64,000 nt of DNA from an uncultured Mariniphaga sp. GTDB taxonomy: Bacteria > Bacteroidota > Bacteroidia > Bacteroidales > Prolixibacteraceae. The stretch covers positions 11,727 through 75,726 of the forward strand of contig CAZNPV010000008.1 of assembly GCA_964575025.1 (NCBI GenBank). The letters are read 5' to 3'. Shown in pieces: positions 46,940 through 61,659 of the stretch. The notes beneath the pieces were generated by a model. That model made no database searches. It was not told where the DNA came from and saw only the letters and a program-made list of their open reading frames with translations. Within the stretch, counting starts at the first letter, position 1. Every line of letters begins with the position of its first letter. A program made the position numbers and the translations under genes.

Positions 46940-48364
46940 CTATTCCTGTTCCCTGTGGGAAAGGATAATATCAACGGGATACGTATTCCGCAGGTATTCA
47001 GACACTTTCTCCGCTGCATACACCGACCGGTGCTGTCCGCCGGTGCAGCCAAAACTAACCGAGAGATGAGTAAAATCCCGTTCCAGGTATTTTTCCACTG
47101 CCTGAGTGATAAGCTTTTTTACCGAATCCAGAAATTCTGCCATTTCCGTTTTTGTTTCCAGAAAGGTTATTACCTCCTTATCCTGGCCCGTCAGATTCTT
47201 AAATTCCTTATACCTCCCCGGATTATGGATTGCACGGCAATCGAACACAAATCCTCCCCCGTTCCCGGACGGATCAGCCGGAATACCCTTTTTATAGGAA
47301 AAACTGGTAATCCGCACGGTCAAGTCCTTTCCGGAAGCTCCTATCTGATGCAATACGCTTGATTCCGGAAGTTTCTTTAAGATATTCTTCAACTCCGGAA
47401 TCTGTACCGGAAGATCCATTCCCGAGAGCAAATACTCCAGGTTACGAAGGGCATAGGGGATGCTTTTCAGGAAATGTTCCTTTTTTTCATAAAATCCCCT
47501 GAAACCATACGCTCCCATTGCCTGCATGATTCTGATCAACACAAATCCGTCAAAATATTTCCGGAAAGTCGTTGGATCAGAAGGCGTTATTTTCTGTAGT
47601 TCATTCAGATAAAAACCGTATAATTCTTCCCGTACCGGGGGAGGAATATCCGCTTTGCCATCATACAGCAGGGAAGCCAGGTCGTATTGTAAGGCTCCTT
47701 TCCTGCCCCCCTGGTAATCGATAAAATATACCCGGTTGTTTTTTAACATGATATTCCTCGATTGAAAATCGCGGAAAAGAAAATAGGAATGGTCTGCCGT
47801 CAGCAGAAAATCACTTAACACCTGGAAGTCATCTTCAAGAGCCTGTTCATCAAAAGGTATTTGCGCCAGCTTCAGGAAATAGTATTTAAAATAGTTCAGG
47901 TCCCACATCATGGATTGTTTGTCGAAAGCCGCCCTGGGATAGCAAACCGAATAATCGATATCTCTGCCGGCCAGAACCTGAATACGGGGTAACTGAACCA
48001 GTACTTTCCTGTATTGAGCCACAATGCGGTCTGAAAAATCCCTGCCGGTACGTTCCTTACTTAAAAAATCGAATAACGTAGTATCTCCCAGATCTTCAAT
48101 CAAATAATAGGTCCGGCTGTCTCCCACTGCATAAATTTGCGGTACCGGAATAGTGTTTTTCATAAAATGGCCTGAAAAAGATAAAAAAGCCTCATTCTCT
48201 TTTACATCCCCATTAAAAGCACCGATAGCTGTTCGGTTTTCACTGTGTAACCGGCAATATTCACGGTAGGATCCGGATGAGGGCAAATCTTCCACATTCC
48301 GGACTTTTTCAGAGAAAGTGGATTCAAATAAGCGAATAATTTTATGGATTGCTTCGGGCTTCAA
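46940..48364 (-). CDS. Fusion protein: AmgK/APH-like sugar kinase domain + RapZ C-terminal domain
   Basis: 474 aa. N-terminal FRDFQSRNIML...FIDYQGG..GALQYDLASLLYD (APH/COG3178 kinase signature). C-terminal ...FDCRAIHNPGR...GCTGGQHRSVY (RapZ C-domain signature). Confidence 0.65.
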   Translation of the reverse strand: MKPEAIHKIIRLFESTFSEKVRNVEDLPSSGSYREYCRLHSENRTAIGAFNGDVKENEAFLSFSGHFMKNTIPVPQIYAVGDSRTYYLIEDLGDTTLFDFLSKERTGRDFSDRIVAQYRKVLVQLPRIQVLAGRDIDYSVCYPRAAFDKQSMMWDLNYFKYYFLKLAQIPFDEQALEDDFQVLSDFLLTADHSYFLFRDFQSRNIMLKNNRVYFIDYQGGRKGALQYDLASLLYDGKADIPPPVREELYGFYLNELQKITPSDPTTFRKYFDGFVLIRIMQAMGAYGFRGFYEKKEHFLKSIPYALRNLEYLLSGMDLPVQIPELKNILKKLPESSVLHQIGASGKDLTVRITSFSYKKGIPADPSGNGGGFVFDCRAIHNPGRYKEFKNLTGQDKEVITFLETKTEMAEFLDSVKKLITQAVEKYLERDFTHLSVSFGCTGGQHRSVYAAEKVSEYLRNTYPVDIILSHREQE

Positions 48365-49917: not shown

Positions 49918-50031
49918 AACCCCTAAGGCAGTTATAAACACGATTCTGCTTATAAAAAAAAACGGAGATCTTTTTTTTTTAATAAAAAAGATCTACTTTA
50001 GAAGTGGCAATTTATACCTGATTGAACAACT

Positions 50032-50613
50032 TTGAACATGCGGCTCACTACAACGTTGCTTGGTGCATTGGTTTTGCTGGTTTCCGGATTGGGTGCTTTT
50101 GCGCAAAACGTGAATTCCGCTGAGAACAATTGCCGGATCATCATACCGGAAGTAGCCCTGGTCAGTGTCCTATCCAATAATTCAGAATCGATTGTCCTGC
50201 AACCTGCAATTCCTGACGAAGCAGGACTTGTACTTGATTTTTCCAATGCCCGGAAAAGCGATGCGTGGATTAATTATTCATCTATATTGGCAGGAAACGG
50301 GTTACAATCCAGAAGCCTGAGTGCCAAAATTAACCAGACAATACCCCCCGGGCTGCTTTTAAAAATCAGGGCATCCGGCGATGCCGGTCAGGGTGCAGGA
50401 AAACGTGGAGTGCCGGCAGGTGAAATTATTCTCTCCAATACCTATCAGCCTGTTATAACTGGAATCGGTAGCGGATATACCGGGGCCGGATTAAACAAAG
50501 GACATCTGCTTACCTATTCACTCGAGTTGGGAGAACCAGAGAATTACGGGGATCTTTTGCACCAGAAAGACCTTACATTCACCGTTATTTTTACCTTAAT
50601 TGACGATATATAA
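50032..50613 (+). CDS. Secreted putative fibre/adhesin subunit, paralog A
   Basis: 193 aa, signal peptide ...AFAQ. Shares IPEVAL, WINYSS, TIPPG, GIGSGYTGAGLNKGHLLTYSL and C-terminal VIFTLIDD with paralogs B and C. Confidence 0.6.
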   Translation: MNMRLTTTLLGALVLLVSGLGAFAQNVNSAENNCRIIIPEVALVSVLSNNSESIVLQPAIPDEAGLVLDFSNARKSDAWINYSSILAGNGLQSRSLSAKINQTIPPGLLLKIRASGDAGQGAGKRGVPAGEIILSNTYQPVITGIGSGYTGAGLNKGHLLTYSLELGEPENYGDLLHQKDLTFTVIFTLIDDI

Positions 50614-50681
50614 TTCCCCTCTCAGGAATTTCGCAGGCTGATTTCAGGATTTTCCCCATTCAACAAGATCTGATTTAACCC

Positions 50682-50689
50682 TACCTTTG
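50682..50689 (+). promoter_or_regulatory. Bacteroidota-type -7 promoter box (TACCTTTG, consensus TAnnTTTG)
   Basis: Located 33 nt upstream of the ATG at 50722. Confidence 0.4.
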
Positions 50690-50721
50690 CACAAGTTGTT
50701 TTAGGCACTGTTTTTATTCCT

Positions 50722-51303
50722 ATGAAAAAAAATCTCAGTCTGGCATTTATTTCAGGTATTTTGTTGTTCACCATGGAAATAACAGGTACAGCCCAACCAA
50801 CCAATTCCGGATCACACACCCTTTCATTAAACATACCGGAAGTCGCTTTGCTCGACCTTGAATCAAACACAAATACGTCTCTTGCTCTCAGTCCTTTTTC
50901 TCCTACCGAAGCAGGAAATGCACTGGATTTTTCTTCCGCATCCGATCATTCAATATGGCTCAATTATTCCTCGGTAACCGGAAACTCCGGATCACACAGG
51001 AAAATCAGCGCCTATGTTGAAGGAACCATTCCTGATGGTATGATGCTCAGTGTAAAAGCCTCGTCGTATTCAGGGAATGGCAACGGCAGAACCGGAATCC
51101 CAACCGGAAAAGTCCATTTATCAGAAAATACTCAGGATATCATTACCCACATTGGAAGTTGTTATACCGGCGACGGAGTGAACAACGGACACCTGCTTAC
51201 CTATTCCCTTGAACCAGGAAAGAACAATACGGATTACGAAACCCTTGCCTACGAAAATTCTGCTTCATTGCATGTTATTTATACCTTAACGGACGACAAT
51301 TAA
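50722..51303 (+). CDS. Secreted putative fibre/adhesin subunit, paralog B
   Basis: 193 aa. Aligns without gaps to paralog A, with IPEV at residues 38-41 in both. Confidence 0.6.
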   Translation: MKKNLSLAFISGILLFTMEITGTAQPTNSGSHTLSLNIPEVALLDLESNTNTSLALSPFSPTEAGNALDFSSASDHSIWLNYSSVTGNSGSHRKISAYVEGTIPDGMMLSVKASSYSGNGNGRTGIPTGKVHLSENTQDIITHIGSCYTGDGVNNGHLLTYSLEPGKNNTDYETLAYENSASLHVIYTLTDDN

Positions 51304-51453
51304 TTCACCGGGCTGGCCGGTCAATCCATCGTTCATTTCGCGTAAAACATTCAACAAATCATCCCTGTATATAAAAAAAGATGTAAATTAAAACAGCAGG
51401 TATTTGTAATTCATTCTGTTTTGTTTTACTTTGAGATAGCAAAAAAAAGCATC

Positions 51454-52257
51454 ATGCAACAAAGAAAATGTATTCTGATCATTGGGATGATCCTGTTGTT
51501 TGTCTTTGCGGAAAACACAAAAGCAAACATACTGGTTATGAATGGGCTGACTCATGAACACCAGGCTGTACAGGGAGAGGTTAGAAACGGAATTATTGAA
51601 TTAAAGAACGTTTCGCAGCAACCTCAATCCGTACAACTTTACCAACGGGATTACTGGTACTCCCATCAAGGTGAAAACCGGCATGACACACCGGGTACCC
51701 TGAAACGTTCCAATGCAGGGTGGATCAACATCAACCCAACATTTGTAACGCTGGCCCCGGAAGAAACAGTCACCGTGGAATATGAAATAACCATTCCGGC
51801 TGTTGACTCTCTTACAGGAACCTATTGGAGTGTTATCATGGTAGAAGGATTGCAACCCCCGGACACGGCTGCTACGGAAGGCATCAGGATAAATACGGTA
51901 ATCCGGTATGCCGTACAGATCATTACCCATATTGGCAATAGTGGAACGGTCAATATAACCTTTCTGCGTTTCAATCTTTCAAAGCAGGAGAACGGTACCG
52001 AATTAGCAGTGGTACTGGAAAATATTGGTCAACGGTTGGTCAAACCGGAAGTAAGTATTGAAATTTACGATTCCAACGGCACTACCCTCGGAGTGACTAC
52101 TGCAGAAAGCAGAAAACTCTACCCGGGAACATCAGCGAATTTCTTCCTTGACTTATCCCATCTTCAAACCGGTTCCTATACCGGTATTTTAATTGCGGAC
52201 TGTGGAGATGATTATGTGTTTGGTTCCAACCTTACACTTGACATAAAAGATGATTAA
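51454..52257 (+). CDS. Secreted two-domain Ig-like protein (candidate periplasmic chaperone/scaffold)
   Basis: Start set at MQQRKCILIIGMILLFVFA. Two beta-sandwich-like halves are predicted. The stop overlaps the next gene's start by 8 nt. Confidence 0.5.
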   Translation: MQQRKCILIIGMILLFVFAENTKANILVMNGLTHEHQAVQGEVRNGIIELKNVSQQPQSVQLYQRDYWYSHQGENRHDTPGTLKRSNAGWININPTFVTLAPEETVTVEYEITIPAVDSLTGTYWSVIMVEGLQPPDTAATEGIRINTVIRYAVQIITHIGNSGTVNITFLRFNLSKQENGTELAVVLENIGQRLVKPEVSIEIYDSNGTTLGVTTAESRKLYPGTSANFFLDLSHLQTGSYTGILIADCGDDYVFGSNLTLDIKDD

Positions 52258-54970
52258 TCAACGTATTCTGGTACTGTTCTTTTTATTTATTCCGATTCTC
52301 AGTTTTCCGCAATCAGGAAGCGATGTGGCTTTGGAATTAATGTCACGGACCCATAACTTTGAACCTGGCAGGATCCATACGCTTGTCTTTAAAATAAACA
52401 ACAATGCTGCAACCCGGATATCCCTGCAACCCTACCTTACGCTTCCTGCGGGACTGAAACTCATTTCTGAGCTAAAACCACTGGATCTGGCACCGGAAGG
52501 GCAGAACATCCTGATTATAACCCTGAACATTCCCTCAAACTATCAAGCGGGGAACTATACGTTCTCGGTAAGGCTGGTGAATCCTGCCAATCCTTCTGTT
52601 GTATATGCTGATTATTCATCCGGAATGACTGTTAAGGAAGATCCCGCAATAACCATTGATTTAATTTATGCGCCTGATTATGTAAAAGCGGGTGAACAGA
52701 TTGAGGCTTCCTTTGTTGTCAGGAATACCGGGAATACAACAGAAGACCTGAACCTGAATGCCACAAACTGCAGCATTGAAGGTCCGCATACCATTCGTTT
52801 ATCCCCGGGAAACTCTTCGGTTGTCAGGGTGGTTGCAGAGACCAATGAAAATATAACCATGGTAAGCCGTAAGACCTTTTACATCAATGCAGGAAACAAT
52901 CACATGGAGGAAGTAAGACAAAGCGGCTCAGTGCGTATCATGCCGGTAAATATAGATACCCAGGATCTCTACCACAGATTCCCGGTATCAATCACAGCAC
53001 GTTACCTGACAAAAGGGAAAGATGGAGAATTCTCAGGAGGCTACCAGCTAGAAGCAAAAGGTTCAGGATCCATCGACCCGGAAGGGATTCACAAGGTGGA
53101 ATTTGTGGCCCGGGGCCCGAACCAGTTTGACCTTTCGTTGCTGGGCCTCTACGATGAATATACCCTGAATTATACCAACCGGTTTATGAAACTTAAAACC
53201 GGAGACAATTCCTATTCGATGACTCCCCTGACTGAATATTCCAGGTATGGAAGAGGAATTGAACAGACCTTCACATTTCTGGGCACTTCCCGGGCCGGCA
53301 TGATGTACCTGACTCCCAGGTTCAATAAAAACTTTACAGCAGAATACGGAGCTTTCGTAAACCTCGACATCTATAAAAAAAACGGATTCGGTTTATATTA
53401 CCTCCGGAAAAAAGTAACCTCCGGGGAGCATGAAAACTTATACAGCATTACAGCCAATTTGCAACCCCTGGAACGAACATCCCTCGAAATGGAAGCTTCC
53501 TGGGGAGAGAAAAACGGAAGTACCGACTTTGCTTACCGGATTAATGTAAATTCACAGTTCTCAGGATTCTCCCTGTCATCCTTCTACCTTCATGCAGGCA
53601 AAGATTACCCGGGTTATTACTCCAATTCCGATTTTTATTCAGGCCATCTGAATTACAATATAGCACGCTGGTTAACCATAGGATTAAATGCTCGTCAGGA
53701 TTTTATGAACGCACAGGTGGATACGCTGCTTATGACGTCCCCTTTCTCAAAGTTCTATCAGGCACATGCCAATTTCAGAATGGGAAACCGGATCTACTTT
53801 AAAACCTATATCAGGAAAAACGAAAGGGAGGACCGTTCCCTGGCCAAGAAATTCCACTATCAGACGGTATCTGTGAATACATCCCTCTCACACAGGCTGG
53901 AACGTTTTGGGTATGGCCTGGAAGGCGAATACGGAAATACGGAGAATTTCCTCCTGCAAGAAGCAGAAAACCGGAAAAAAACCTACCGGTTGAGCGGCAA
54001 CTTTTATTGGCAACCCAACCAGAAACATAACCTACAGGGATTTATTACCTATACGAATCTGAACACATTTATTTCCAGCCAGCAGGAAAACAACTTTATC
54101 TTTGGACTAACAGCCTCCGGTAACCTGGCACGAAATCTTCGGGCGAACCTTCAACTGCAAAATGCCTATTCCATTGAAGAATATTACAGAAACCGGAACC
54201 TGGTTCAACTTATTATTGATTACAATTTCTTAAAACGCCATCGTTTATCATTGAACAGCTTCTATACAATCTTTCAGAATGAAGTATCCGGGCCTGATTA
54301 TTCAATCTCATTAAACTATTCCCTGACTCTGGGGATTCCTTTAAAAAAGATTGCAGAAGCCGGATCCGTCACAGGAAAGATCGAAAATGCCGGGGTTGAA
54401 ACAATCAGCGATATTGTATTATCTGTCGGTGGACAATCCGCAATAACCGATGAATCCGGAAATTTTTCTTTCAAGAACCTGAAACCAGGTTCCTATAATT
54501 TGTTAATCGACCGTTCCACACTAAATATGGAGGATATTCCGGATATCCTTACTCCCATAACCATTGCTGTTGAGGGGAATAAGGAAACGATAGTCACCTT
54601 TGGAATGACTAAAGCAGCCAAAGTGAGGGGATTAATAAAATTTGAAGCGGATGACACGAAAACATCGGCCGATGAAACCATGCTGCCATTCGGGCAACTT
54701 GTTATGGAATTAACCCGGGAGGAGGAATCCATCCGGATTATTTCGGATCAAAACGGAACCTTCCGGTTTCCGAATGTCAGGCCGGGAAAATGGGTTTTGA
54801 AGGTATACAGCTCCGGATTGGACAAACAATATGTGCTGAAGAAAGATCATTTTGATTTCTCCTTATCCCCGGGGGAAGTCAAAGAAATAACTATCGCTGT
54901 GCAAAAAAAGAAGCGAAATATCATTTTTATAAATAATAATATTAACTTGTCTTCTGATGGCAACAAATAA
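52250..54970 (+). CDS. Large secreted protein: two N-terminal Ig/CARDB-like domains, beta-barrel-like core, two carboxypeptidase-regulatory-like domains (candidate outer-membrane assembly pore)
   Basis: 906 aa, with a signal peptide. Domain cues are VRNTGNTTEDLNL, a long region of alternating aromatic/polar strands, and GSVTGKI...SGNFSFKNLKPGSYNL and VRGLI...NGTFRFPNVRPGKWVL. Confidence 0.5.
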   Translation: MINQRILVLFFLFIPILSFPQSGSDVALELMSRTHNFEPGRIHTLVFKINNNAATRISLQPYLTLPAGLKLISELKPLDLAPEGQNILIITLNIPSNYQAGNYTFSVRLVNPANPSVVYADYSSGMTVKEDPAITIDLIYAPDYVKAGEQIEASFVVRNTGNTTEDLNLNATNCSIEGPHTIRLSPGNSSVVRVVAETNENITMVSRKTFYINAGNNHMEEVRQSGSVRIMPVNIDTQDLYHRFPVSITARYLTKGKDGEFSGGYQLEAKGSGSIDPEGIHKVEFVARGPNQFDLSLLGLYDEYTLNYTNRFMKLKTGDNSYSMTPLTEYSRYGRGIEQTFTFLGTSRAGMMYLTPRFNKNFTAEYGAFVNLDIYKKNGFGLYYLRKKVTSGEHENLYSITANLQPLERTSLEMEASWGEKNGSTDFAYRINVNSQFSGFSLSSFYLHAGKDYPGYYSNSDFYSGHLNYNIARWLTIGLNARQDFMNAQVDTLLMTSPFSKFYQAHANFRMGNRIYFKTYIRKNEREDRSLAKKFHYQTVSVNTSLSHRLERFGYGLEGEYGNTENFLLQEAENRKKTYRLSGNFYWQPNQKHNLQGFITYTNLNTFISSQQENNFIFGLTASGNLARNLRANLQLQNAYSIEEYYRNRNLVQLIIDYNFLKRHRLSLNSFYTIFQNEVSGPDYSISLNYSLTLGIPLKKIAEAGSVTGKIENAGVETISDIVLSVGGQSAITDESGNFSFKNLKPGSYNLLIDRSTLNMEDIPDILTPITIAVEGNKETIVTFGMTKAAKVRGLIKFEADDTKTSADETMLPFGQLVMELTREEESIRIISDQNGTFRFPNVRPGKWVLKVYSSGLDKQYVLKKDHFDFSLSPGEVKEITIAVQKKKRNIIFINNNINLSSDGNK

Positions 54971-55062
54971 ATTGCAATCCTATGAAACGAACCCCGATCC
55001 CGACGACTATCAGTACGGGCCAGGTTCCATGAGTTACCATAAATAATAAACAATTTAAACGA

Positions 55063-55638
55063 ATGAAATTACGAAACAAAACCATACGCATAACGACGGC
55101 CATGATGATTGCATGTTTTCTGTTTTTCATAAAAAGCTATGCTCAGGATGATGAAGATGGCTGTTCCCTGTCGTTTTCCATCCCTGAAATGGCCCTGATT
55201 GATATTGAACCACCCGGGTTATCCCATCTATATCTGACGCTGGAAGCTGGTTCAGAATCGGGACAACCCATAAAAGCGAAAGGTCCTATCAATGACAATT
55301 TATGGATCAATTATACTTCCTGTATGGCTTCCGGAGCTGGCAGCAGGTCGGTAAGTGTCCAGATAGCAAGCGGAACCATCCCCGACGGAGTACAGCTTAT
55401 TTTGTCCCCATCCGGATTCTCGGGCAGTGGTCAGGGAACACACGGAAGTCCAGTTGGAGAAATCAATCTGTCACAAACTCCACAAACATTGATCTCAGGA
55501 ATTGGCCGCTGTTTTACCGGGGACGGTCAAAATAACGGACACAAGCTGAACTATTCTCTGCGGATCTCTGATTATGAATCATTAAATTTTGATGGTTCAT
55601 CCAATATTCAAATTGCATTTACATTAACTGATAATTAA
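55063..55638 (+). CDS. Secreted putative fibre/adhesin subunit, paralog C
   Basis: 191 aa. IPEMAL, WINYTS, TIPDG, GIGRCFTGDGQNNGHKLNYSL, IAFTLTDN. Confidence 0.6.
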   Translation: MKLRNKTIRITTAMMIACFLFFIKSYAQDDEDGCSLSFSIPEMALIDIEPPGLSHLYLTLEAGSESGQPIKAKGPINDNLWINYTSCMASGAGSRSVSVQIASGTIPDGVQLILSPSGFSGSGQGTHGSPVGEINLSQTPQTLISGIGRCFTGDGQNNGHKLNYSLRISDYESLNFDGSSNIQIAFTLTDN

Positions 55639-55642
55639 ACCT

Positions 55643-56140
55643 ATGCGTTGGACAGTATCTATCATTTTAACGATCATGCTTCTTCCTGTAACCGGTCTGG
55701 GACAAGTTCAGCTTAGGGTTATGGGTGATCCTTTATTTCCGGGTTCAACGTTCGATCTGACAGAAGCAGGAATGGATTATACGCATGCCGTTACCAGTAC
55801 CTCAGGCCCTATGATAACCATTAGCCATAAACATGGACGGAAAAAGAATTTCGGGGAATTTGAATGGCGCCTGGCTGTGCACAAATCGGATGTCTACTGG
55901 AACAATGAACTAAAGGTGGATATCAGAAGATCAGGAGACGGAGAACCCGGGTCACGGTTTAACAACTGGATTGCCGGAGGTACAAATTTCCAGACCCTCA
56001 CCGCTATGCCTATCACCTTCTTTGAAGGAGGGGCTGTGAGAAACAACGTGCCTGTCGAATTCCGCATTAATAATATCTCAGTACTGATACCTGCCGATGA
56101 ATATGAGACCACGATTTATTTTACAGTTTACGAGAACTGA
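55643..56140 (+). CDS. Secreted 165-aa protein, distinct putative minor subunit
   Basis: Signal peptide. The C-terminal PADEYETTIYFTVYEN resembles the terminal strand of SCPU/DUF4402-like pilin folds. Only 4 nt separate it from the preceding gene. Confidence 0.45.
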   Translation: MRWTVSIILTIMLLPVTGLGQVQLRVMGDPLFPGSTFDLTEAGMDYTHAVTSTSGPMITISHKHGRKKNFGEFEWRLAVHKSDVYWNNELKVDIRRSGDGEPGSRFNNWIAGGTNFQTLTAMPITFFEGGAVRNNVPVEFRINNISVLIPADEYETTIYFTVYEN

Positions 56141-59724: not shown

Positions 59725-61659
59725 ATGTATCAAAAACGGATCGTATTTTTGGCTTTAACTTTATGGCTTTCTTTACAGAGTCTGGCTCATGTAAGCCTGA
59801 AAGATACTGTAATCCGACTGGACGATATTGAGATTAAAACCTCCCGGCTGAATAATTTCGGGCTTGGCATTGCTGTGGACCGTGTGGACAGCCGTTTGCT
59901 CCGCATGAACAGCACCCTTTCCTTATCGGGATTGTTCTTCTCGCATTCAGGGATCTCTATGAAACAATATGGCCCGGGTGGATTGTCAACCCTGTCCATC
60001 AGGGGCGGAAACGCTGCCCACACAGCGGTTCTCTGGAACGGCATCAATATTCAAAGCCCCATGAACGGGATGTCCAACCTTTCGGTATTCCCTTCTTTTC
60101 TTATTGACAACATATCGGTCCAAAGAGGGGGGTCGGGTTCGCTCTATGGAAGCGGGGCTGTTGGAGGTGTCATCCATATTTCCGACATAGGAAGATTTCA
60201 TCAGCAGAACAACGTTACATGCATGGCCGGTTACGGAAGTTTTAATAAACAGGATTACATTTTTTCTGCGAAAACAGGAGACAACACCTACGCTTTCACG
60301 ATGAAATTCTATATACAGTCGACAGACAACGACTTTGCATACAGGAATACTACCCGGATTGGGAATCCCATGGAAAAGCAAACCAATGCAGGAATGCGAA
60401 GCTATGGATTCATACCCGGCCTTCAGGTACGAACGTCAAAAAAATCGATTTTAAGCATCAGCACGTTGTATCAAAAGTTCAGCAAAGATATCCAGACAAT
60501 GATGACCAACATCCTCCCAAACCAGGACAACCAGGCAGATGTGAACCTCATCCTAACGGCAAACTGGAAATATGTAGACTCAAAATACACCTTTCTTGTA
60601 AAAAGCGGTGTGGTCAGAAACAGAATTGTTTTAACAGATAAAAGCCTGCCAAACCCGGAAGATGAACCTATCGCTGACAATACCGGAAACTCCATGATCA
60701 ATGAAGTGGAAAGCCGATTTGTTATTCAGGAGGGACACATACTGAATATCGGACTCAATTTCACACACGAATCAGGAGAATCAATGGGCTACCTTAATAA
60801 GGCTATCCGCGACAGGATGGCAATTTTCTCCTCATGGAAAATATTGAATATTATTTCCGGGCTGGAGACCGTTCTCAGTTTCCGGCAAGAGTATGAAAAA
60901 CATAGCAACCACCCGGTGACATACTCTTTGGGAACGGATTATCACCTGACCGATCACATCCTGATCAAAGGGAATATCTCGAAGAACTACAGAATCCCTT
61001 CTTTTAATGATTTGTACTGGAAACCCGATACCTATGCACGGGGCAATCCATCTCTCAATCCGGAATCCGGATATTCAGCTGAAATAGGATCCGTTCAGGT
61101 GTTGGAAACAGAAACCGGGGAGATGGAATTTTCCCAGACCCTGTATAAAAATACCATGAATGACCTGATCCTCTGGCTTCCCGACAACAAAGGAATCTGG
61201 TACCCGGAGAACAAAGAAAAAGCTGAAACCAGCGGGCTGGAATTAAAAGGAAAAGGAGAATGGCAATTCAAAAAAGTTAAATTTGATGTGACTGCTTTCT
61301 ATACCCTGATTCATTCAACCCTTACGAGTTCAGACGCGTACAACAACAAACCTGTGATTTATGTTCCCAGACACAAAGCAATGGCTTCCGTTGCCTGTCA
61401 CTATAAGGACCTGTCCGTAGATTTTACCTTTAACCATAACAGCAAACGGTATTACGACCATTCACATACCCTCCCGGAATACAGCATAGGAGACCTGACG
61501 GTTCAATACAAGTTTCCAGTAAAAGGGAACCGGCTCAATGCTTCCTTCCGGATAGGTAACCTATGGAACACGGAATACCAAACCATCGCATGGTACGCGA
61601 TGCCATTGCGTAGTTACCAGCTGGCATTGAAAATACAAATCAACACAAAATACCCATAA
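59725..61659 (+). CDS. btuB: TonB-dependent receptor, BtuB-like corrinoid transporter
   Basis: 644 aa. Signal peptide, plug domain (LSIRGGNAAHTAVLWNGINIQSP), beta-barrel. Controlled by the B12 riboswitch. Confidence 0.85.
   Translation: MYQKRIVFLALTLWLSLQSLAHVSLKDTVIRLDDIEIKTSRLNNFGLGIAVDRVDSRLLRMNSTLSLSGLFFSHSGISMKQYGPGGLSTLSIRGGNAAHTAVLWNGINIQSPMNGMSNLSVFPSFLIDNISVQRGGSGSLYGSGAVGGVIHISDIGRFHQQNNVTCMAGYGSFNKQDYIFSAKTGDNTYAFTMKFYIQSTDNDFAYRNTTRIGNPMEKQTNAGMRSYGFIPGLQVRTSKKSILSISTLYQKFSKDIQTMMTNILPNQDNQADVNLILTANWKYVDSKYTFLVKSGVVRNRIVLTDKSLPNPEDEPIADNTGNSMINEVESRFVIQEGHILNIGLNFTHESGESMGYLNKAIRDRMAIFSSWKILNIISGLETVLSFRQEYEKHSNHPVTYSLGTDYHLTDHILIKGNISKNYRIPSFNDLYWKPDTYARGNPSLNPESGYSAEIGSVQVLETETGEMEFSQTLYKNTMNDLILWLPDNKGIWYPENKEKAETSGLELKGKGEWQFKKVKFDVTAFYTLIHSTLTSSDAYNNKPVIYVPRHKAMASVACHYKDLSVDFTFNHNSKRYYDHSHTLPEYSIGDLTVQYKFPVKGNRLNASFRIGNLWNTEYQTIAWYAMPLRSYQLALKIQINTKYP

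Follow-up and report, generated by a model that had tools for sequence, protein, structure and literature searches.

Six adjacent genes of an uncultured Mariniphaga sp. (Bacteroidota) can be read, with reasonable probability in our judgement, as a chaperone-usher-like system that assembles a donor-strand fibre with the help of a chaperone of the WxLIP type. The genes, here called S1, S2, C, U, S3 and T, occupy positions 50032-56140 of a 64,000-nucleotide stretch of contig CAZNPV010000008.1 (the window). An earlier, sequence-only reading described a locus resembling chaperone-usher operons but lacking canonical PapD, PapC and FimA signatures, and named the WxL surface clusters of Firmicutes as the alternative kinship. 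The absence of canonical Pfam families holds, and the evidence now supports a hybrid of those two proposals: (i) a platform of usher architecture, (ii) an escort of WxLIP lineage, (iii) pilin-like subunits of a new family. All six open reading frames (ORFs) were verified at the positions first given, all on the + strand. The genes and the parts of their products that matter for the argument are listed here.

50032-50613, + strand: S1, 193 amino acids (aa) when read from TTG as in the ORF list; distal subunit paralog
50722-51303, + strand: S2, 193 aa; chaperone-proximal subunit with a pilin-like beta-sandwich
50794-50841, + strand: N-terminal extension of mature S2, QPTNSGSHTLSLNIPE; shared by every S paralog but not by T, with hydrophobic residues in alternation
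51454-52257, + strand: C, 267 aa from ATG; as an ORF it runs from TTG 51421 (51421-52257, 278 aa)
52250-54970, + strand: U, 906 aa; predicted outer-membrane protein with usher-like architecture
52325-52939, + strand: N-terminal pair of U, residues 26-230; two immunoglobulin (Ig)-like beta-sandwiches in the AlphaFold2 model
52970-54349, + strand: barrel of U, residues 241-700; ~24 long and 2 short antiparallel strands (DSSP, AlphaFold2 model)
53090-53269, + strand: conserved insert of U, residues 281-340; follows the second barrel strand and has the top conservation in the family
54362-54907, + strand: C-terminal pair of U, residues 705-886; CarboxypepD_reg/transthyretin-like sandwiches at 705-798 and 818-886
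55063-55638, + strand: S3, 191 aa; post-usher subunit paralog carrying the N-terminal extension
55643-56140, + strand: T, 165 aa; by profile comparison a divergent S paralog, always the last gene

The genes are tightly packed: C and U overlap by 8 nt (52250-52257), and a gap of 4 nt (55639-55642) separates S3 from T, both as first reported. The start of C is most likely ATG 51454, because nearly all homologs measure 265-268 aa, and that of S1 is probably ATG 50038, which gives 191 aa. A Sec-type signal peptide is present in all six products, with cleavage of S1 predicted between AFA and Q (AFA|Q). No lipobox or C-terminal LPXTG motif was found in the six proteins, the sole LP.TG match lying inside the signal peptide of T. 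Existing annotation is sparse. Pfam and NCBIfam scans of the six single sequences found one family only, CarboxypepD_reg in U, and PDB sequence searches with single U, C and S2 sequences returned nothing significant. Homologs are named hypothetical at source, bar one U homolog called 'carboxypeptidase-like regulatory domain-containing protein'; one C homolog carries the UniRef name 'DUF3324 domain-'.

The barrel protein and its WxLIP-like partner

U was modelled with AlphaFold2 as a monomer, using a 27-sequence alignment (mean predicted local distance difference test, pLDDT, 84.8). The model, a confident one, is a membrane beta-barrel and reproduces the layout proposed from the sequence: two Ig-like domains, a barrel core and two carboxypeptidase-regulatory-like sandwiches. 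In a Foldseek search of the PDB its top matches are full-length FimD (1.5e-14) and PapC, over 750-900 columns, in agreement with the suggested resemblance to ushers. TonB-dependent receptors come next (1e-8 to 1e-6), and barrel proteins dominate the matches. The C-terminal sandwiches are the only part of U that Pfam recognises (CarboxypepD_reg, 1.2e-11), and the N-terminal region has weak matches to Ig-like families. Plug and TonB_dep_Rec give no match in U, whereas the genuine receptor encoded at 59725-61659 of the window matches both.

The orientation of U can be approached through its longer homologs. The protein is ~1000 aa long in most Prolixibacteraceae loci, and all six longer homologs tested (~990-1170 aa; P0013, P0015, P0017, P0019, P0022 and P0026) carry a C-terminal SPOR peptidoglycan-binding domain that passes the Pfam threshold; the 906-aa U of the window has no SPOR domain. 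Because SPOR is fused at this end, the C-terminus of U is predicted to face the periplasm, and the N-terminal domains would face the same compartment. The Ig-like pair is a candidate docking site for chaperone-subunit complexes. The insert at residues 281-340, with its invariant P290, G299, Y308, G318, T328, E329, R332 and G336, may be a gate or plug element.

Evidence of a different kind, namely homology at the level of sequence profiles, links C to the WxLIP proteins of Firmicutes. A profile of the C family (58 homologs) matches EfmWxLIP1, an Enterococcus faecium protein of solved structure (9i25_C/9i1y_A in the PDB), at E=4e-6 and in register over ~160 residues; the single C sequence gives no significant match. 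A Pfam scan of the 58 family members detects WxLIP_PGBD (DUF916) in 32 and WxLIP_HBD (DUF3324) in 19, none reaching the gathering score (best 26.6 bits vs 28.9). The two domains are collinear and nearly full length, at residues ~38-125 and ~144-259, respectively. Eight annotated WxL clusters on plasmids of Enterococcus, Bacillus, Listeria, Lactiplantibacillus, Melissococcus and Lactococcus served as a comparison set. Against their WxLIPs, hhalign gives C a probability of 81-93 %; with signal peptides and membrane anchors removed the value is 81 % (E=1.2e-5, 214 columns), and five column-shuffled controls reach at most 1.2 %. C is, on profile comparison, a remote but significant homolog of the Firmicute WxLIP over both domains in the same order, which bears out the suggestion that the 267-aa protein recalls the two-domain DUF916/DUF3324 partner.

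The end of the protein differs. C finishes in ...GSNLTLDIKDD, with no hydrophobic stretch or transmembrane tail, whereas each of the eight Firmicute WxLIPs closes with a hydrophobic helix and then basic residues. C is therefore best described as a candidate soluble, two-domain periplasmic chaperone, in which the conserved DYWFSYTGESKHD...RSNAxW region is probably a candidate source of the donated strand. Some family members also match ASH and other Ig-like domain families weakly, and Por_Secre_tail gives one sub-threshold match in C (16 bits vs a cutoff of 27) and none in S, T or U. A WxL locus of Enterococcus type, 93.6 % identical to EfmWxLIP1, was met in PLSDB under CP069367.1, labelled 'Klebsiella pneumoniae plasmid pSP4663_1'; it is heavily frameshifted and almost unannotated, and is likely a contamination or misassembly.

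For the Firmicute proteins, Hassan et al. describe WxLIP as two perpendicular Ig-like domains; in the AlphaFold2 models that they report, a gap in the WxL sandwich is filled by a strand from a WxLIP hairpin (PMC10599100). Going by those models, such an arrangement would be in effect donor-strand complementation, although the paper uses neither 'chaperone' nor 'usher'. WxL proteins themselves are almost wholly confined to Lactobacillales and Bacillales (PMC10599100).

The small subunits and a proposed order of assembly

S1, S2 and S3 belong to one family (S1 matches the hidden Markov model (HMM) of the S family at 6e-66), for which neither Pfam nor NCBIfam has a model and sequence comparison gives no relative in the PDB. 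The family is large: at least 240 homologs were found by word-indexed search, and an exhaustive profile search gave 1,388 clusters at 50 % identity (E<=1e-3). The best 150 of these 1,388 clusters are all close, single-domain and ~190 aa long, and among the 150 matches listed there is no bridge to known families. S1 and S2 share 81 identities (42 %) in an alignment that needs two single-residue gaps, and only 47 of 193 when left ungapped, so that the gap-free alignment once claimed for them has to be given up. The motifs IPE[VM]AL, W[IL]NY[ST]S, TIP[DP]G and the C-terminal [VI].[FY]TL[TI]D[DN] do occur in all three paralogs at equivalent positions; the long GIG..YTG motif is sound for S1 and S3 but not for S2, which has I.HIG. 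The post-usher group to which S3 belongs and the chaperone-proximal group of S2 align by hhalign at 100 % probability. A gene of S3 type after U is conserved, and S3 is a candidate adaptor or minor subunit.

An AlphaFold2 monomer model of S2 is all-beta (pLDDT 89.4). The model is a confident one, and Foldseek ranks CfaB, the FimH pilin domain, CupB6, SafA and FimG highest among PDB structures. The best structural counterparts of S2 are, as a fibre locus would lead one to expect, chaperone-usher pilins, although the match is a weak one. No type V pilin stands among the top 50 matches of S2, and the FimA/Mfa families of Pfam give no match. The small proteins match no characterised family, and so none with a function other than fibre formation.

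The S paralogs and T differ at their N-termini. Compared with S by hhalign, T aligns through the C-terminal strand at 90-95 % probability (E 1.7e-6 to 1.8e-8), and T is on this evidence a divergent paralog of S. Residue 25 of T falls opposite residue 47 of S2, so that mature T begins at a point matching the first core strand of S, and mature S therefore has ~16 additional N-terminal residues. Family-wide, the median distance from the cleavage site to the E-A-G motif is 37 aa in S vs 21 aa in T. This S extension, with the consensus xHxLxIxIPE, is a candidate donor strand. The distal tip of a chaperone-usher pilus is formed by the subunit that has no donor strand. Since T has no N-terminal extension, it is a candidate for the tip, that is, for the first subunit to be incorporated. 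Gln follows the predicted cleavage site (+1) in ~90 % of S and T family members and also in U; in the window this residue is encoded at 50100, 50794, 55144 and 55703, and it matches a habit of exported Bacteroidota proteins.

The likeness of the small subunits to WxL domains, which the sequence-only reading had raised, did not survive comparison by HMMER and hhalign. Among 66 S members there is no WxL Pfam match, and S and T score at most 1.8 % by hhalign against the WxL domains of the eight plasmid clusters. By eye, three motifs of S and WxL can be matched in order, and the global profile score (13.4) exceeds that of column shuffles (3.7 +/- 2.0); the reversed profile, however, scores 12.5. 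Because the reversed profile scores alike, the motif signal amounts to generic strand periodicity. A PDB sequence search with the small WxL protein of E. mundtii and an E. faecium-type SwpA fragment matched no chain.

Taken together, the parts suggest the following sequence of events. The six products would enter the periplasm by way of their Sec signal peptides, which are observed. There C would bind S and T and complete each beta-sandwich with a donated strand, as PapD does for the pilin sandwich. U would sit in the outer membrane as a barrel of ~24-26 strands, the fold being modelled, with its Ig-like and C-terminal sandwich domains toward the periplasm, and would recruit the C-subunit complexes. 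T would enter first and cap the distal tip; S3 would be next, followed by many copies of S2 and S1, each S extension of ~16 residues inserting into the preceding subunit and displacing the chaperone strand. The subunits are presumed to polymerise: the small beta-sandwich proteins would probably be exported across the outer membrane and joined into a thin surface fibre.

Conservation of the cassette across Bacteroidota

A first look at synteny started from U homologs at 31-45 % identity on three unrelated contigs. Each contig carries one to five S genes, then C, U, an S-like gene and T, and the neighbouring genes differ in each. A search of reference genomes with the C profile extended this to 80 loci, in which ORFs were classified with HMMs built in this analysis. 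The order n x S-C-U-S-T is found in essentially every locus with enough flank (~70 of 84 loci); in the remainder of the 84 the cassette is interrupted by contig ends. The commonest patterns are SSCUST (25 loci), SCUST (12) and SSCUTT (9). The six genes stay together in related genomes, and so regular an arrangement, found in essentially every related locus with sufficient flank, is far beyond chance.

Carriers span at least four orders of Bacteroidota. Within Prolixibacteraceae they include Mariniphaga, Draconibacterium, Tangfeifania and Maribellus; beyond it, Owenweeksia/Schleiferiaceae, Chitinophagaceae, Flectobacillus and one metagenome-assembled genome (MAG) labelled Chlorobiota. A search from distant S proteins found the same cassette in a Flavobacteriaceae isolate and a Saprospiraceae MAG. 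The flanking genes are unrelated between loci, and no SusD-like or transporter gene is conserved in the flanks of the loci compared.

The number of S genes upstream of C varies from one to five per locus. In one locus (L001, 296-5009) four tandem units of 1176 bp each hold an identical 194-aa S gene; units 1-3 are 90-100 % mutually identical, and unit 4 reaches ~68 % identity when the 1176-nt register is held fixed. The sister assembly (L002) has two copies, not four, and the repeat is a copy-number-variable amplification of the distal subunit gene. It was confirmed by script, its period being above the Tandem Repeats Finder limit of 500. Tandem amplification of S fits the need for a bulk structural subunit in quantity.

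Three departures from the standard cassette were noted. The Saprospiraceae MAG has an extra 194-aa gene of S size between C and U (L101, 8868-9452), in the order S, S, C, 194-aa gene, U, 182-aa gene, 166-aa gene, a minor variant of an otherwise fixed order. An orphan array of three S-family genes (L102, 7001-8847) adjoins genes for cargo of type IX secretion (T9SS), with no C or U gene within 7 kb of it, and so S genes can occur apart from the assembly genes. The U gene is split into two to five ORFs in the MAG loci L037, L038, L042, L043 and L084, through either sequencing frameshifts or pseudogenisation of the cassettes.

Known systems and competing readings

The cassette shares with chaperone-usher systems (Fim, Pap, CFA/I and the archaic Csu) an operon logic of major subunit(s), chaperone, usher, minor subunit and special terminal subunit. 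U shares the periplasmic N-terminal domain(s), the ~24-strand barrel and the two C-terminal beta-sandwiches of ushers. The cassette subunits are likewise small, with a modelled sandwich that weakly resembles pilins and a short N-terminal extension, and T, encoded last, is without the extension, like tip adhesins. The cassette differs in that it has no sequence relation to the Usher, PapD or pilin families, and its chaperone candidate belongs with WxLIP and not with PapD. U has two N-terminal Ig-like domains where the usher has a single N-terminal domain, and its C-terminal domains are of CarboxypepD_reg type, often followed by SPOR. Chaperone-usher pili are, moreover, pili of Proteobacteria, whereas the host here belongs to Bacteroidota.

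Several results count against a chaperone-usher-like fibre. The Usher family (PF00577) has no Pfam or NCBIfam match in U, nor does it appear among the precomputed domains of 28 homologs; PapD matches none of 58 C members; and Fimbrial, SCPU and DUF4402 match none of 66 S members at E<=1. By hhalign, against references from six E. coli K-12 operons, which give narrow profiles and leave out archaic systems, U scores 0.8 % with six ushers, C 0.5-1.7 % with seven PapD-type chaperones, and S or T at most 15 % with 15 pilins. At the level of structure, a barrel-only PapC (2vqi) scores 6.7e-7, no better than the TonB-dependent receptors, so the ranking of ushers as the best matches of U rests on the barrel and flanking sandwiches combined. 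The pilin-fold match of S2 has a best E of only 5.5e-3, with TM scores of 0.3-0.5. The usher plug domain sits between barrel strands 6 and 7; the insert of U is shorter and lies elsewhere in the barrel, after strand 2. The polymer, the strand exchange and the chaperone-subunit complex are elements that we infer. Finally, the Firmicute relatives of C have been described as cell-wall-bound complexes, not as fibres (PMC10599100).

This last point bears on a reading that we hold somewhat unlikely, in which the cassette is a non-polymerising complex for surface display or secretion, the diderm counterpart of the Firmicute WxL clusters. C would escort S and T, and U would export monomers or small hetero-oligomers that act as adhesins or binding modules. 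The kinship of C with WxLIP is the only sequence-level homology to any described system, and WxL and WxLIP form cell-surface complexes, not pili (PMC10599100); the weak pilin-fold evidence for S points the same way. S and T, however, are without detectable relation to WxL domains, no WxL-domain protein being found in the cassette by sequence tests. The presence of the extension in S but not in T, together with tandem amplification of S, fits ordered polymerisation better, and outside fibre-assembly platforms an usher-like architecture such as that of U is not known. The WxL/Csc clusters of Lactobacillales and Bacillales consist of a small WxL protein, a large WxL protein, a WxLIP (DUF916 then DUF3324), of which C is a remote homolog, and an LPXTG protein. 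In these clusters as in the cassette, a gene for a small secreted beta-sandwich protein lies directly 5' of the WxLIP-type gene. The cassette differs further from them in that C has no transmembrane helix at its C-terminus, an LPXTG protein is missing, and the 906-aa outer-membrane barrel is not found in the monoderm clusters.

A very divergent but true branch of the classical or archaic chaperone-usher systems is a quite improbable account. C would then be a diverged PapD, U an usher of PF00577 and S the pilins, with the similarity to WxLIP reflecting common Ig-like ancestry. Full-length ushers are indeed the best matches of U and chaperone-usher pilins those of S, and the gene order mirrors Csu- and Fim-type operons. 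The weak matches of the C family to ASH and other Ig-like families could be added, these families presumably sharing a Pfam clan with PapD. Against this stand the low hhalign scores of C, U, S and T with the E. coli references given above, the significant match of C to WxLIP by the same method, and the failure of any family member to match Usher, PapD_N, Fimbrial, SCPU or DUF4402. That U is instead a barrel of transport or porin type, passing a solute or polymer, with the small proteins as accessory binders and no protein export, is very improbable indeed: the barrel of U alone does resemble TonB-dependent receptors and porins as much as PapC, and CarboxypepD_reg occurs also in SusC/TonB receptors (one such receptor lies near one locus), but U has no Plug domain or TonB-box family match, carries its CarboxypepD_reg at the C-terminus and not the N-terminus, is strictly coupled to three to seven small secreted paralogs and a WxLIP-like partner, and has no conserved SusD-like or transporter genes in its flanks.

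Type V (FimA/Mfa) pili, which also occur in Bacteroidota, offer a further comparison. They are surface fibres formed by strand exchange between beta-sandwich subunits; their pilins are made as lipoprotein precursors, which a protease processes, and no chaperone or usher takes part. The cassette differs in having no lipobox or FimA/Mfa match and in having a dedicated barrel and a chaperone-like protein.

The kind of machine proposed here, a chaperone-usher-like route to a donor-strand fibre, is a known one; the parts of the cassette lie outside the known families, and the phylum is unexpected. Bacteroidota are the textbook case for pili free of chaperone and usher (type V) and for surface export by T9SS, and we know of no chaperone-usher-like route in the phylum. 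In the literature searched, no prior description of the cassette was found, which is no proof of absence, and none of usher-like systems in Bacteroidota or of DUF916/DUF3324 in Gram-negative bacteria; the cyanobacterial tubular pilus, considered as a possible prior description, is a different system. A widespread, unannotated cassette with usher-like architecture would give the phylum a new envelope machine. It would also supply candidates for adhesion and biofilm formation in marine and sediment Bacteroidota, and it is present in several cultured genera. With the cassette come four protein families (S, T, C and U), none of which currently has family-level annotation.

The kinship between C and WxLIP ties together two systems hitherto studied apart. 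It is a tentative idea, which we would doubt sooner than assert, that the cassette and the Firmicute WxL clusters descend from a single ancient system built around a two-domain Ig-like escort, which completes and delivers incomplete beta-sandwich subunits of the cell surface and, in diderms, became a soluble periplasmic chaperone working with an usher-type barrel. If true, the cassette would represent a third independent lineage of chaperone-usher-like pili, the first in Bacteroidota, and the Gram-positive WxLIP would be a membrane-tethered chaperone or assembly platform, not a mere anchor. Strand donation by WxLIP is also a testable mechanism suggested for the WxL clusters of enterococci, listeriae and lactobacilli, which are poorly understood.

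Neighbouring genes and possible regulatory sites

On its 5' side the cassette is flanked by housekeeping genes for a DUF218 protein and a family 2 glycosyltransferase, and on its 3' side by genes for two indolepyruvate-type oxidoreductase subunits, a UPF0047 protein and a TonB-dependent receptor. No further member of the S, T, C or U families occurs within the window. One candidate regulatory feature lies inside the cassette.

50682-50689, + strand: candidate internal promoter, TACCTTTG, matching the Bacteroidota -7 consensus TAnnTTTG

This site is 33 nt 5' of the S2 start and hints that the chaperone-proximal subunit is transcribed separately and more strongly. Across the window the motif shows no enrichment (38 occurrences vs 52.6 expected), and the site is on that account a mere lead, and a weak one. 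Scans for sigma-70-type promoters and terminators and intergenic RNA folding gave nothing above shuffled expectation. Between the glycosyltransferase gene and S1 there is an AT-rich palindrome at 49966-49996 (AGATCT, T10, AAT, A6, GATCT), possibly a terminator acting in both directions or else a regulatory site. Elsewhere in the window, at 46940-48364 on the - strand, a 474-aa protein has a phosphotransferase domain of APH type fused to a RapZ C-terminal domain.

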